DNA from: an uncultured Gemmatimonadales bacterium
GTDB taxonomy: Bacteria > Gemmatimonadota > Gemmatimonadetes > Longimicrobiales > RSA9
DNA: 64,000 bases
Assembly (NCBI GenBank): GCA_963741945.1
Contig: CAVUKA010000005.1
Span: 288,001-352,000 of the forward strand
Reading direction: 5' to 3'
The stretch's first letter is position 1, and the number at the start of each line of letters is the position of its first letter. Both the position numbers and the translations under genes were made by a program. The notes under the pieces were generated by a model. That model did no database searches. It was not told the DNA's origin and was given only the letters and a program-made list of their open reading frames with translations. Shown piece after piece: positions 4,145 to 54,370 of this stretch.

Positions 4145-7100
4145 TCAGAGATCCAGCGCGGCCCGGACGATGCGCAGCAGCGACCCCGCCACGAACGGCT
4201 TCTCGAGGAAGAGACTTCGTGGAACCTCGCCGGCCTGGCGCCGCGCGGCTTCCTCGGCATATCCGGAAGTCAGGAGCACGGGCAGGTCTCCGCGCACGCG
4301 ACGCAGCCTCCCGGCCAGCTCGCCGCCGCCGATACCGGGCATGACCATGTCCGTGAGCAGCAGGTCGATGCGACTCTCGTAATCGGCCGCCACCGCCAGG
4401 GCTTCTTCCCCGCTGCGGGCTTCCAGCACCGTGTAGCCGCTCTTCCGGAGCACTTTCCGGACGAGCGCTCGGACCGCCGGCTCATCCTCCACGAGCAGGA
4501 TGGTCTCGTCACCATCGAGATCCGCGCCTTCCTCCGCCGGGCGCTCCGGTGCGTCCGGCCGCTCGTTCACGATGGGCAGATAGATCTTGAACGTGCTCCC
4601 CAGCCCGGGCTCCGAGTACACCCAGATCCAGCCACCGCTCTGCTTCACGATGCCGTACACCGTGCTGAGCCCGAGCCCCGTCCCCTTGCCGACCTCCTTC
4701 GTCGTGAAGAAGGGCTCGAACACACGGTCCCGGATCTCCTGCGCGATTCCCATCCCCGTGTCCGTCACGGCCAGCATCACGAACCGCCCGGCCTCGGCCG
4801 TGGGGCGCCCGCGCGCGTACTCCTCGTCCAGGTCCACGTTGGCGGTCTGCAGCGTGAGACGCCCACCCTCCGGCATGGCGTCGCGGGCGTTGACGGCGAG
4901 GTTCATCAGCACCTGGCCGAGCTGTCCCGGATCGGCCCGGACCGGCTCCAGGTCCGGCGCAAGCTGCTGCTCCAGCTCCACATCCTCCCCGATGAGACGG
5001 CGCAGCATCCGGCTCGTGTCCTCCACGACTGCATTCAGGTCCAGCACGCGGGGACGGAGGATCTGCTGCCGGCTGAACGCCAGCAGCTGCCGGGTCAGAT
5101 CTCTCGCCCGCGTAGCGGCCCGCTGCACTTCCGCCAGGTCCTCCTTCGCCGCTTCATCCACGCGCTGCATGAGCAGATCGACATGCCCCATGATCGCGGT
5201 CAGGAGGTTGTTGAAATCGTGCGCCACGCCGCCCGCCAGCCGCCCGACCGCCTCCATCTTCTGCGCCTGCTGGAGCTGCCGCTCGAGCTCGCGGATCGGG
5301 CGGATGTCACGCGCGATCGTGGACAGGAACGTGGACCCTTCCGGCGATGTGTGGGCGATGACCACCTGCGACACCGGGATCTCGCGCCCGCCCCGCGAGA
5401 TCAGTCTGGTTTCCCCACTCCAGCTCCCCTTCTCCAGCGCCGTGGGTATGACCACCTCCCGGAACCAGCGGCCATCGGCCTCGGAGAGCGAGCCGAAGAA
5501 CGCACTGCCGTCCTCGTCCGTGTCATCGATCTCCATGACCCGCCGCATGGCAGCGTTGCGGTAGACCACGGTGCCGTCCTCGTGGGCGATCCCCACGTAG
5601 TCGGTCGTCGCCTCCAGCAGGGCCGTGAAGCGCTGGCGCTGACGCTCGGCACGTTCCCGCTCCATCGCCGCTCCCACCACGTTCGCCACCGCCTGCACGA
5701 AGGCCCCGTCCTGCTCCGTGAAGCTGCGGGGCTGCCTGGAGTGGGCCGCCAGAACGCCGAGGATGCCGTGGTGCCCTCGGATCGGCACGGTGAGGCCGCT
5801 CCGGATCCGGTTCTCGCGGAGCAGGTCGCTCCCCGGGAAACGCTCCTCCTGGTCCAGGTCCGCGACCGCAACGGGGCTGTTCGTGGCCAGCGTATGTCCG
5901 GCCTGCGACTCCGGCCCGCCCGACACCCACGCGCTCCCGATCAGCTCCGGGGCCCACCCCACACCCGCGCGTAGCAGCAGCTCAGGGCGATCGGGCCGCC
6001 GTTCCAGCACCTTCGCGTACTCGACGGCGAGCGTTTCACGGATCAGCGTGGTGGCTTCGCTCAGGATCACCTCGATGCGGACCTCTTCCAGCGCCCTCTG
6101 CCCCAGCCACGCCACGGCGCTCTGCTGCTCCGCGGCCGTGATCAGCTCCTGTTCCGCCGCCTTCCGCGCCGTCATGTCCGCCGCGACCACGATGGCGCCC
6201 GCCGCGCCGCCGGCGGCATCGTGGAGCGGGGCGGCCGAGACGCTGGCCACGAACATTCCCCCGTCTCCGCGGGGAAGCCTGAGCTCGATATCCGTGAACG
6301 CGTCGCCCGCGAGAATCCGGCGCTCCAGCTCTGCACCCACCCGCCCCGGCGGCAGGACGTTCCGGAGCGGGGTCCGGAGCCGCTCCGCCTCGGTCCACCC
6401 GAACCCGTGCTCGGCGGCCGGGTTCCACATGTGGATCAACCCCTCGGGATCCGCCGCGATGATCGGAACGGGAGAGGCACGGACCACGGCCTGCAGGATC
6501 TCGTTCGTTTCCCGCACCGCCTCCGCACGCCGCCGCCACTCGGTGACATCGCGGATGAACCCCGCGTAGCCGACGATTCCACCATCGTCGTCTCGCCGCA
6601 GCGCGGCTGACAGGAGACATTCCCGCTGCGCGCCCCCCTTGCGGACCAGCGTGACCGGCCAGTCCCGCAACCGGCCCGCCGCCTCCACCCGGCGGCGGAA
6701 CTCCTGCCGTTCGGACGGGTTGGCGTACAGCGCGCGGACGTCCTGCCTTGCCACTTCCTCTTCCGTGTAGCCGAACAGCTCCAGGAACGCCTGGTTCCAC
6801 GCCGTCAGCCTCCCGTCCACTGTGCTGATGTAGAACGCGTCCGCGGTCTGCTCCAGGATGGTCCGGTAGCGCTCCTCGCTCTCCCGCAGCAGCGCTTCGG
6901 CCCTGTGCTGCTCCGTGACATCGCGGAACGAGGTCACCGTGCCGGTGAACTCTCCATCGTCCAGGAGCGGCGCCGCGTTCACCGACAGCACCTTGCGCCT
7001 GCCGTCGGGCAGCTCGACCACCTGAATGGCGTCGTGAACCGGCTCCCCCGTGCGGCGGACCCGGGCCAGCGGGTAGTCCTCGGGCGGAAGCGGATCACCA

Positions 7101-51410: not shown

Positions 51411-52041
51411 GGTTCCTGCGGATTTCACGGTGGAAACAGTCACTCGCGCTCGTCGGCTTCAGGGGATGCGTAGTCGGCTTTGCGTATCGCCATAGTGCGA
51501 AACCGCGGAATCTTCACTGTTTCAACTTACCGCGCAGCAATGCCCAGCACCACCGGCCGACGGCATCGGCTCATGGCCGATGAGTCTCTTCGAATACCGC
51601 TGCGGAACACCCCAGCATGGATTGGATTGCAGAACGAGGGCCAGTATTCCATCTTTCAGCCTCCGCTGGCGCGCAGGGCTTCTCGCCGAGGTCGATCAAT
51701 GCACGTGATTGGTCGAGAATCCGCGTATGCCCATCGACTCCTGTTCAGGACCCATCAAGTCTGGAATGTGGTGCAATTGCCAACCGGCGGTTGCTGATCT
51801 CTTCCATGAACCCGCCCGGAGCTTTTGAGCCGCTTCCCAGTCCTAGTAGCCGGTGGTCTTCTCCCCAGAATTGAGTCCGGGCAGGGGCCCGTTTAGGAGC
51901 GTTATCTTCGCCTCGGACCCGGAGTCTCAGGAGAGTTGAAATGAGAAGGCCGCCCTCGGCTGGTCGCGGCGTCACCTAATATCAGGGCGCCAAGATGGTT
52001 GACCATTCACGGGCTCGAGGCCCAGATGCCGGAGGACGGCC

Positions 52042-53106
52042 ATGCTCACAGGTGTCGCGCTGTTTCCAAAGCTAACGATGGGGATGGACTTGGGCGATAG
52101 AGTCAGCCGGATCTGCGGGGTGGATGCCGGAGGGGACGTGGTCCGCGAGGAGTCGGTGGCGACGACGTGGCCGGCGGTGGAGGAGTACTTCGGCGCGCTA
52201 GGGGCATGCCGGGTGGTGATCGAGGTGGGCACGCATTCGCCGTGGGTGTGTTGGCTGCTGGAGCGGTTGGGGCATGAAGTGATCGTGGTGAATGCGGCGC
52301 TGGTGTACGGGAAGGGGCGGCGCAAGAAGCGCAATGACGCCATGGACGCGGAGTTTCTGGCGCGACAGGGGCGAGCGGACCCGAAGCTGCTACACCCGAT
52401 CCGCCACCGAGGGGTGCAGGCCCAGGAGCATCTGGCACTGATTCGGGCCCGGGATCAGCTGGTGTCGGCGCGAACGAAGCTGGTCAATCATGTGCGGGGA
52501 ACGGTGAAGCCGGTAGGGGGGCGCATCCAGGGGTGTTCGGCGGACGCGTTTGCCCGCAAGGCGGACAGCCAGATCCCGAGCGGACTGCGAGCGGCGCTGG
52601 CGCCGGTGCTTGAGATGATCGGAGCCCTGACGGCTCAGATTCGGGGCTACGACCGGGAGATCGAGCGTTTGGCCCGGGAGCGATACCCGGAGACCGCGCG
52701 ACTGCAGCAGGTTACGGGCGTGGGCCCGGTGACCTCGCTGGCCTACGTGCTCGTGGTGGAGGACGCCAACCGCTTCGACCGAAGCCGGGACGCGGGGGCG
52801 TACTTCGGACTGGTGCCGAAGCTGGACGAGAGTAGCGATTCGAGTCCGCAGCTGCGGATCACGAAAGCGGGAGACGAGCTCGGACGAAGACTCCTGGTGA
52901 ATGCGGCTCACTACATCCTGGGTCGCTTCGGACCGGACAGTGACTTACGCGCTCATGGGGAGCGGATCGCCGCCCGGGGAGGAAAGAACGCCAAGAAGCG
53001 AGCGGTGATTGCCGTGGCCAGAAAGCTCGCAGTCCTGCTCCACCACCTCTGGGTCACGGGGGTGAAGTATGACCCGCATTATTCCGCCCGGCGTAAGGCG
53101 GCGTAG
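52042..53106 (+). CDS. IS110-family DEDD transposase/recombinase
   Basis: GMDLG, VVIEVG, KRNDAMDAEFLAR (D-E-D-D); GVGPVT, AYFGLVP..ESS, RITKAG, KRAVIAVARKLAVLL. Confidence 0.95.
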   Translation: MLTGVALFPKLTMGMDLGDRVSRICGVDAGGDVVREESVATTWPAVEEYFGALGACRVVIEVGTHSPWVCWLLERLGHEVIVVNAALVYGKGRRKKRNDAMDAEFLARQGRADPKLLHPIRHRGVQAQEHLALIRARDQLVSARTKLVNHVRGTVKPVGGRIQGCSADAFARKADSQIPSGLRAALAPVLEMIGALTAQIRGYDREIERLARERYPETARLQQVTGVGPVTSLAYVLVVEDANRFDRSRDAGAYFGLVPKLDESSDSSPQLRITKAGDELGRRLLVNAAHYILGRFGPDSDLRAHGERIAARGGKNAKKRAVIAVARKLAVLLHHLWVTGVKYDPHYSARRKAA

Positions 53107-53365
53107 AACGAGTCCGTAGACGAGCACAGACAGGAGCATCAGCACTTCGCCCAGAGAAACCGCGTCCCTGAGACTGCGTTCCGCGCCTTGACCGTGAGAG
53201 GTCGCCGCAGAGTTGGCAGCTCAGGAGCGGGAAACGGACACCAGCTGGCACCGGTGCACCCGAGCGTGCACCCTCGACGAGTGCGGATAGAAGGATGGTC
53301 CGATGGGCGAACGCAGGGCCGGTCGAGGACCGGCTGGGGCCACCACGTTGGCCCTTGACAGACAA
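53107..53365 (+). ncRNA. Putative bridge RNA / seekRNA of the IS1111-type element
   Basis: 3' non-coding region; stem CCTGAG(A)CTGC/GCAGCTCAGG encloses an internal loop with TCCGCGCCTT, the reverse complement of the right flank. Boundaries approximate. Confidence 0.65.
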
Positions 53366-53395
53366 GGCCTTCTCATAGAAGGCGCGGAGCGGCCC

Positions 53396-53506
53396 ATGAG
53401 ACGGAGTCGATTTTCGGAAGGGCAGATCGCCATGGCATTGCGCCAGGCGGAGGCGGGTACGCCGGTGGCAGAGATCTCCCGGAAGCTCGAGATCTCCGAG
53501 ACCACC
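53396..53506 (+). pseudogene. Truncated IS3-family transposase orfA (HTH)
   Basis: MRRSRFSEGQIAMALRQAEAGTPVAEISRKLEISETT; similarity ends abruptly at the 3' end of the pyruvyl transferase gene. Confidence 0.85.
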
Positions 53507-53509
53507 CAG

Positions 53510-54370
53510 CTACGGTCCGCTCACTTGGCCAAATGGGCAAGCGGCAAGAAGAGCCGTAGCCGTCTGTGCGAGTGTTCGCTGGTCAGGAATGTCGACGTGA
53601 TGCGCCGCGGCAATCAAATCTTTTCCTTCCGAGACGGGGGTCGATCGGTGGGTCATGCCGAGGGATTCGTAATAATCCTGAAACTTGACGCCATCGCCAG
53701 ATAACCGATCGGTGACAATGATGTGCCGGGCTGGTATCCCGTAAGCATGTGCTATTATTACGCCATGCAGCGAACTGGAGACGACGCATTCACAACTGGT
53801 TACGGCCTCCACGAAATCGTTGATTGAATACCGCACATCAATCAGTATCAGCCCAGCAAGGCCACGGATCATCTCCCGGACATCTCGAATCTCCGTATAA
53901 TGCGGAACGACGCCCACCCGGCCAGAACGCATGGTGATGGTTGCTTCCAGGAACCGAGGCAGCAAGATCGCGGGATCACCAAATACTGAGGGGCACTCGA
54001 TGGCGAAATCTCGGTAGCGATCGAACGTCCGCGGCCCCCGTACAGCTCGGATTTCCTGAGGTTGCTCGAGGTAGGAATCCGACGACATGATTCCTGAACC
54101 CCAAATAATGGAATCCCATTGGGCGCGATTCGCGATACTCCCCGCCGTGAGGTAAACACTTCGTACTGACCACCTTGAAGGCCAGACGTTGACGGGTTGC
54201 CTGCCCGTCATCACCCCGAACAGATATGGTCCTACTTGATCGCCTACGTTCATAAAGCTGTACGGCTCAGACCAGTGCATTCGGTTCCCAGGGCTTCGGC
54301 GTACGCTATCCAGCGCAGCTCTAATCGCCGGCTTGGCTCGTCTCCGCAGCGCCGTCAGGTCGAGGCGCAT
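53510..54370 (-). CDS. Polysaccharide pyruvyl transferase family protein
   Basis: NVGD, GSI, IWGSG, AVRGPRT, GDPAILL, GVVPHY, SSSLHGVIIAHAYGIP, KFQDYY. Confidence 0.9.
   Translation of the reverse strand: MRLDLTALRRRAKPAIRAALDSVRRSPGNRMHWSEPYSFMNVGDQVGPYLFGVMTGRQPVNVWPSRWSVRSVYLTAGSIANRAQWDSIIWGSGIMSSDSYLEQPQEIRAVRGPRTFDRYRDFAIECPSVFGDPAILLPRFLEATITMRSGRVGVVPHYTEIRDVREMIRGLAGLILIDVRYSINDFVEAVTSCECVVSSSLHGVIIAHAYGIPARHIIVTDRLSGDGVKFQDYYESLGMTHRSTPVSEGKDLIAAAHHVDIPDQRTLAQTATALLAACPFGQVSGP

Follow-up and report, generated by a model that had tools for sequence, protein, structure and literature searches.

The 3' non-coding region of an IS110-family insertion element very probably encodes, on the + strand, a bridge/seek RNA that accompanies the element's own transposase. 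The element lies in the window, by which we mean the whole 64-kb stretch of DNA that was analysed; it is 1446 bp long (window 51936-53381) and is present in one copy in the 4.09-Mb host genome. An initial annotation made from the letters alone had read the region as one of the ncRNAs with which IS110/IS1111 recombinases specify target and donor, and this interpretation is supported by the IS110-family transposase next to it, by the IS1111 anatomy of the element and by covariation between guides and flanking DNA in homologs. Judged from its sequence, the element belongs to the IS1111 type of the IS110 family by every structural criterion that was tested. Its anatomy, exact junctions and conservation were observed directly, together with covariation within the RNA structure, between guides and flanks, and between guides and element ends. 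The features on which the argument draws are as follows.

51853 to 51933, + strand: left part of an IS3-family remnant, 69/83 bases identical to the paralog L013
51934 to 51935, + strand: left AG core copy, the end of the left target, from the overlap of the L013 alignments
51936 to 51940, + strand: TTGAA, the left terminal extension (right donor, RD), which separates the core from the subterminal repeat
51941 to 51951, + strand: left subterminal inverted repeat ATGAGAAGGCC, the reverse complement of 53366-76
52042 to 53106, + strand: IS110-family transposase, 354 aa (PF01548, PF02371, NF033542)
53160 to 53230, + strand: putative target-binding module, consisting of outer stems, loop and inner hairpin, from covariance model R1 and pair counts
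53180 to 53189, + strand: putative right target guide TCCGCGC-CT-T, that is TCCGCGCCTT, 10/10 complementary to 53379-88
53206 to 53215, + strand: putative left target guide CGCAG-AG (53206-12) followed by TTG, in the sense of left target, core and left end
53235 to 53302, + strand: putative donor-binding module with stems CGGAC/GTCCG and GCACC/GAGTGC and a hairpin at 53253-72, from pair counts in 44 sequences
53242 to 53246, + strand: putative right donor guide CAGCT, able to pair with AG+TTG at the left end if one G-T wobble is allowed
53287 to 53294, + strand: putative left donor guide ATAGA-AG, plus a base G matching the first right-target base, from 7-mer identity with the right end
53355 to 53360, + strand: conserved TTGACA near the right end, from the family alignment
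53366 to 53376, + strand: right subterminal inverted repeat GGCCTTCTCAT, the reverse complement of 51941-51
53377 to 53381, + strand: right terminal extension AGA and right AG core copy (53380-81), from the L013 alignment
53382 to 53505, + strand: right part of the IS3-family remnant, with the orfA start at 53396; 108/126 identical to L013 from 53380

The transposase carries both domains of its family, PF01548 in the N-terminal part (residues 14-155, 3.9e-16) and PF02371 in the C-terminal part (residues 220-299, 1.7e-15), and reaches 201 bits, where 140 is the cut-off, with the NCBIfam model NF033542, 'IS110 family RNA-guided transposase', the name under which NCBI already files proteins of this kind. 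A phmmer comparison with IS621 (8wt6_A) gave E 9.3e-7, mainly through the C-terminal half, the N-terminal stretch being weak on its own. In this alignment, its weak N-terminal stretch included, E61, D99, D102 and S264 fall opposite E62, D104, D107 and S243 of 8wt6_A; if that chain has two extra N-terminal residues, these positions would be native E60, D102, D105 and S241, which are the catalytic residues of IS621 in the account of Hiraizumi et al. 2024 (PMC11208158). An alignment of 31 homologs shows no variation at these four residues of the window protein, nor at D16. D16, which is unaligned to IS621, is a candidate catalytic residue by virtue of this invariance. At the position of the GL-P----S(t)G motif the protein reads GLVPKLDESS, in which the Ser is invariant and the Gly is replaced by a Ser whose conservation across the clade is at least 90%.

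Relatives of this protein number in the thousands, with at least 7998 of 8000 scored candidates matching at E <= 0.001. The best non-self match, 87% identical, is known only from short metagenome contigs, and on sequenced plasmids the best match, to IS110-family genes, reaches only ~32% identity. In a sample of 401 genomes of the phylum, 10 matched at E <= 1e-60, the host's own genome counted. Loci for comparison comprised 11 from this 401-genome sample, the best 80 of 574 confirmed metagenome loci and the best 80 of 547 confirmed genome loci, and the transposases of the fetched loci are 49-64% identical to the window protein. The query that retrieved them was an alignment of 31 homologs out of the 120 listed; a single-protein query for related loci returned no relative. 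Six loci that matched on the minus strand were dropped (L025, L026, L028, L029, L032 and L034). Among 166 records, the 5' anchor was located in 154, the donor motif in 143, the right end in 121 and the left repeat in 140, with the remainder left uncounted. The clade is large and was encountered almost exclusively in soil-type metagenomes, the relatives coming from such metagenomes and from MAGs. Two distant IS110-like frames were also seen in the host genome, at G000:C1:350798-351526 (L023) and G000:C1:848240-848431 (L024), with 26% and 36% identity over part of the query.

The exact boundaries of the element follow from its insertion site. The element is nested in the left end of an IS3-family remnant, its insertion target, and an uninterrupted, diverged and more complete paralog of this IS3 end lies elsewhere in the host genome (L013, G000:C3). 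Against this empty paralogous site the left flank can be aligned as far as L013 1583 (69/83 identical), and the right flank aligns from L013 1582, corresponding to the core copy 53380-81, to window position 53505 (108/126 identical). On L013 the two alignments overlap by exactly 2 nt, AG, without any longer target duplication, and the core is therefore AG, with copies at both junctions (51934-35 and 53380-81). The element proper spans 51936-53379 plus one AG core copy; the junctions proposed in the initial annotation were slightly off, and the alignment to L013 moves the ends to 51936 and 53379(+AG). The subterminal inverted repeats are 11 bp long and lie 5 nt (left) and 3 nt (right) inside the element ends. 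An ATGAGAA motif precedes the gene in 140/166 records, and the target loop repeats the TTG of the left extension directly behind its core (53213-15). Non-coding DNA amounts to 106 nt upstream of the gene (51936-52041) against 273 nt downstream (53107-53379). As for the interrupted element, the IS3 remnant (51853-51935 and 53380-53505) keeps its left end and the first ~36 codons of orfA, with homology stopping at 53505. The orfA of L013 matches the IS3 model NF033516 at 3.7e-12, under the family cut-off, and L013 has an A-rich slippery stretch near L013 1850.

The initial annotation had described the downstream region as an outer stem, CCTGAG-A-CTGC (53167-77) with GCAG-CTCAGG (53216-25), enclosing an inner hairpin, GACC/GGTC (53190-93/53200-03). 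These strings are all found at the coordinates it gave, as are TCCGCGCCTT (53180-89), AAGGCGCGGA (53379-88), AGTCTCAGG (51923-31) and ATAGA (53287-91), and both helices are real, being kept by compensatory changes in 98 homologous RNAs to a degree that 0/500 shuffles equalled. A MAFFT alignment of the nearest 3' regions shows a conserved architecture. Pairs were counted on a MAFFT alignment of 44 sequences, selected from the 166 records for having a unique guide and a segment no longer than 175 nt, against a structure that we stated ourselves. In this set the outer stem is 92.2% paired, with 5/10 pairs changed on both sides, the inner hairpin 84.7% (2/4 pairs) and the central helix of the donor module, GCACC/GAGTGC, 98.2% (2/5 pairs), and the observed covariation score was reached by 0/500 shuffles. 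The outer stem of the donor module, CGGAC/GTCCG as drawn for the window, has an unconserved register and is 47% paired in the same 44 sequences.

A covariance model of the target module (R1) was built from 43 homologs with the window excluded, and this check, which the initial annotation had proposed, recovered the window at 53158-53229 (+) with 60 bits and E 3.8e-12, the next window match having 12.7 bits. R1 matched in 97/97 of the sources searched, at 28-68 bits, which places the window in mid-range; a search of the host genome for orphan RNA copies with R1 found none, the second-best match having E 0.4. When 98 RNAs are fitted to the model, pairing extends to 92.0% of cells, as against 21-54% in slid controls, and changes on both sides occupy 198 cells as against 51.7 in shuffles, with 0/500 shuffles as good; the outer stem is 93.8% paired (5/9 pairs changed on both sides) and the inner hairpin 87.8% (3/4 pairs). 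An alignment of this kind leans towards the structure of its model, and the MAFFT-based count is therefore given alongside it. The helices of these 98 RNAs contain G-U pairs (for example UG:10 and GU:8), which fit an RNA transcribed from the + strand. Generic folding was tried as well. The minimum free energy fold of the whole region, likewise proposed at the outset, is only weakly better than shuffles (z = -2.0) and pairs both loop strands together; taken by itself it is uninformative. From the MAFFT alignment RNAalifold retrieved no more than the two helices that align best, the inner hairpin needing the stated structure and the model-based alignment. A search of 51500-54000 against Rfam 15, at E up to 10, gave no matching family and one chance match of 15.7 bits, to a Giardia snoRNA. 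In one homolog, L166, two tandem target modules were seen (2568-2666 and 2745-2843, at 40.9 and 57.5 bits), whose right guides differ and whose left guides are almost identical; it is the second module that agrees better with the right flank of its element.

Read from the sequence, the target loop lies between this outer stem and the inner hairpin. Its 5' strand, TCCGCGCCTT, is the exact reverse complement of the right junction AAGGCGCGGA, as first reported, with 10/10 pairs in a position-specific register: 7 nt correspond to the right target, 2 to the core and 1 to the last base of the right end. AAGGCGCGGA has 3 occurrences in the 64-kb window against 0.30 expected; the third exact copy lies at 4521-4530 (-). 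Covariation of guide and flank among homologs, on which the initial annotation had staked its reading, is evident, as the loop covaries with the flanks. The comparison drew on 119 loci in which both parts were found, comprising 97 unique guides and 9312 cross pairs. The longest reverse-complement match between guide and flank has a median of 8 in the 97 own pairs and 3 in the cross pairs, and matches of >=9 occur in 41/97 own pairs as against 33/9312 cross pairs. Position by position from +1 to +7, the number of loci with a Watson-Crick pair at the right-target base is 68, 68, 67, 65, 63, 49 and 53 of 78, with cross values of 25-30%, and the signal fades at +8; these 78 are the rows, out of 98 model-aligned, that could be anchored on the core-reading CT, the 20 without a CT near the 3' end of the loop being excluded.

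For the left side the initial annotation had pointed to a strand of the stem. The left target guide is instead the 3' strand of the loop, CGCAG-AG (53206-12), which it had missed. Among 80 unique guides, left-target positions -5 to -1 match their own flank in 60/80/90/75/97% of cases, compared with ~26% in cross pairs, and there is nothing at -6 to -8. The window itself has AGGAG-AG in the left flank against CGCAG-AG in the guide, a 3/5 match (-1, -2 and -4) with mismatches at -3 and -5, the former a position matched in 90% of the family. At -3 and -5 the uninterrupted paralog L013 agrees with the window flank, and the mismatches were therefore probably present when the element inserted. The stem sequence CCTGAGACT (53167-75) does complement the left flank AGTCTCAGG at 51923-31, but the match is at chance level and is the coincidence that the initial annotation itself suspected: of 62,434 host 25-mers, 5.3% share a 9-mer or longer with the non-coding region and ~1.3% a 10-mer, on either strand. 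We considered such a match as a feature of the family and rejected it, the own mean being 3.99 and the cross mean 3.84, with a match of >=8 in the window only (1/107 loci).

On the opposite strand of the stem, CTCAGGAG (53220-27) equals the eight left-flank bases adjoining the core. The flank matches of CCTGAGACT and CTCAGGAG are linked because the two stem strands pair with each other, and together they carry an 11-nt copy of the element's own left target (AGTCTCAGG complement plus CTCAGGAG). We think it very doubtful that this copy, which accompanies a mismatched left guide, records a turnover of guides in which sequence from the flank was taken up by the RNA gene, beside the left guide, once a half-matched insertion had occurred; such turnover, if true, would bear on how these elements acquire new target specificities. 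In another locus, L027, the DNA at the right junction (~2765-2785) continues with the post-core sequence of that element's own left-guide region, AGATTGCAGCACCTG, which is the product expected of recombination between the right end and guide-coding DNA, or of a tandem partial copy.

The donor module can be matched to the element ends in a similar manner. The ATAGA that the initial annotation had placed at the predicted circle junction turns out to be part of a 7-nt match, ATAGAAG at 53287-93 and at 53375-81, the latter comprising the right end and the core. The loop 7-mer equals right end plus core in 115/119 loci, in three co-varying forms, ATGGAAG (83 loci), ATAGAAG (30) and ATGGCAG (2); these forms are shared by descent, and the independent covariation events are therefore few. 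The base that follows the donor core matches the first right-flank base in 62% of own pairs as against 33% of cross pairs. On the other side, 5 nt of the right donor guide pair with the element's own left end in the window, and donor positions +4 and +5 are mismatched. Covariation here is modest: over 28 loci with known left ends, one column gives 0.89 own against 0.59 cross and another 0.96 against 0.80. The locus L118, whose transposase is 62% identical, has the same combination of right donor guide and left end, and the mismatch has therefore been tolerated over evolutionary time.

A consensus scan for sigma-70 promoters returned 0 sites, and the suggestion that TTGACA (53355-60) could be the -35 box of a promoter formed at the circle junction is for this reason only a guess; TTGACA, a 15-nt spacing and TAGAAG make up a weak candidate promoter. 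Among the sequencing runs listed for this sequence, none was of RNA. A hairpin, GGGCC/GGCCC, with the conserved loop CCACCACGT stands directly before TTGACA (window 53337-53360), and both are kept across the family.

By analogy with the systems that have been characterised, the transcript of the transposase gene would probably yield the guide RNA, to be bound by the protein. In the target module (~53160-53230), the 3' strand at 53206-12, in the sense of the left target and core, would pair with the bottom strand, and the module as a whole would hold a site of the form NNNNN-AG-NNNNNNN. The donor module (~53235-53302), with ATAGA-AG reading the right end and core and CAGCT complementing the core and left end, would hold the junction at which the excised circle is closed, ...CTCATAGA-AG-TTGAAATGAG..., and strands would be exchanged at the AG core by the DEDD/Ser active sites. 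RNA production, protein binding and activity of the window copy are expected on the analogy with IS621 and ISEc11. The initial description of the element as intact holds in the sense that its open reading frame, ends and RNA modules are conserved, conservation being what the word stands for here.

It is possible, although in our view unlikely, that the RNA family is real but that the copy in the window has been stranded or inactive since a half-match or off-target insertion into the IS3 remnant. Its left target guide matches 3/5 as against 10/10 for the right target guide; the uninterrupted paralog carries the same two left mismatches, so that these were probably there at insertion; and a 2026 preprint reports half-match insertions for IS621. 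The right donor guide is also mismatched with the element's own left end, and the element is single-copy in a host genome that offers 1 perfect and 37 one-mismatch versions of the ideal 14-nt target, all unoccupied. Against this, the open reading frame is full length and has all the family-invariant residues, both ends, both repeats and both RNA modules are complete, and at 60 bits the model score lies in the middle of the family range (28-68). Moreover, two mismatches fall within the range of 0-2 given for natural sites in Durrant 2024 (PMC11208160), and L118 shares the mismatch between right donor guide and left end, which has been tolerated over evolutionary time. As regards the vacant sites, the single perfect 14-nt one is at C5:161485-98, and 31 of the 37 one-mismatch sites read CGCGGAGGCGCGGA, mostly within 37-43-bp tandem arrays and all of them unoccupied; at <=2 mismatches the 14-nt target has 215 host sites, compared with 132 for a reversed-pattern control. 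Intergenic arrays of this kind, at G000:C5:161300-162300 (L196) and G000:C3:503650-504600 (L197), are built around CGCGGAGGCGCGGAG in units of 37, 38, 42 and 43 bp, with up to 10.3 copies and 92-99% matches; both target guides fit the array units with one mismatch, and one site (C5:161485-98) perfectly. We considered whether homologs as a rule lie within arrays of their own target and rejected the idea, as only 8/117 loci have another site (<=2/14 mismatches) within 600 nt rightward.

The remaining alternatives concern the RNA itself. It is highly improbable that the 3' region forms a structure, in DNA or in RNA, that serves to recognise the ends or to regulate the transposase, with flank matches that arise from shared conserved target DNA. 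The region does overlap conserved terminal DNA, namely the subterminal repeat and TTGACA. However, the 97 different guides each fit their own, different flank and misfit those of the others, and the bases that vary fall precisely within the loop, flanked by two helices whose pairing is maintained through compensatory changes and G-U pairs, an arrangement that suggests that an RNA, and not a DNA duplex, is under selection; the same architecture is, furthermore, an RNA guide by experiment in ISEc11, ISKpn4, ISPa11 and IS621, as described in the 2024 reports. That the matches in the window arose by chance in GC-rich sequence has next to nothing to recommend it. Short matches are indeed common, ~1.3% of host 25-mers sharing a 10-mer and 5.3% a 9-mer with the non-coding region, and the match between stem and left flank is such a case, but the right guide matches in a position-specific manner, and chance is excluded by the independent model and by family-wide covariation. 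We accordingly favour the reading of the 3' region as a bridge/seek RNA gene.

An RNA guide has been demonstrated by experiment for ISEc11, ISKpn4 and ISPa11 of the IS1111 group (Siddiquee 2024, PMC11187229) and for IS621 (Durrant 2024, PMC11208160), and the window element can be set beside both. In the account of Siddiquee 2024 (PMC11187229), IS1111 elements have subterminal inverted repeats of 7-17 bp and a longer non-coding region downstream of the gene that holds the RNA, of the two guides the one complementary to the top strand comes first (5'), followed by its bottom-strand counterpart, and for ISEc11 the only promoter described is one formed at the circle junction. The window element shares with these three seekRNA elements, as they are portrayed there, the subterminal repeats, the short terminal extensions and the 3' non-coding region, as well as a target-reading module of ~70-80 nt and the lack of an evident internal promoter. 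The order of its guides follows the IS1111 rule given in the same paper, with the right target guide (53180-89) before the left (53206-12) and segments that overlap at the insertion point. The transposase has 354 aa, compared with the 330-350 reported for the IS1111 seekRNA elements, and its GLVPKLDESS has Ser-Ser where the IS1111 motif GL-P----S(t)G, as given for that group, has Ser/Thr-Gly. The protein is distant from characterised members, the highest identity to IS110-family genes on sequenced plasmids being the ~32% already mentioned.

With IS621, as presented in Durrant 2024 (PMC11208160) and Hiraizumi et al. 2024 (PMC11208158), the element shares two internal loops, one for target and one for donor, and four guides each with a 2-nt core. 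Within each loop the left guide has the sense of the top strand and the right guide is its complement, in keeping with the strand rules in the text of Durrant 2024, and the core-adjacent bases fit the other DNA partner in the manner of the IS621 handshake guides described in PMC11208158. The DEDD and Ser catalytic residues also align (8wt6). In contrast to the published description of IS621, the RNA lies at the 3' end of the element, not the 5' end, the order of guides within a loop is reversed and the core is AG rather than CT. Guides of 5+2 (left) and 7+2(+1) (right) and long subterminal repeats likewise set it apart from IS621 as described, and the protein resembles that of IS621 at an E of about 1e-6 in the C-terminal half only. 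There is also a likeness to the REP-targeting elements ISPpu9 and ISPpu10 of Pseudomonas, as far as these are characterised in our sources, in that the window guides best fit a short GC-rich repeat with many copies in the host. Unlike what is related there of ISPpu9 and ISPpu10, the repeat sites of the window element are all empty, and its only copy is in the IS3 remnant.

RNA-guided mobile elements of this kind were already described in 2024, and the element in the window is a further example; the covariance models of the 2024 papers may already cover its clade. For the genome itself the value of the work is one of annotation, in that an insertion sequence nested within an IS3 remnant has been recognised and the known mechanism is unchanged. 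What is added is a delimited natural RNA-guided recombinase, with exact ends, an AG core, left and right guides of 5+2 and 7+2 and donor guides, together with 97 natural guide sequences, most of which fit their own right flank, from which pairing rules for the clade can be drawn position by position. Such a data set could help searches for new bridge-recombinase orthologues.
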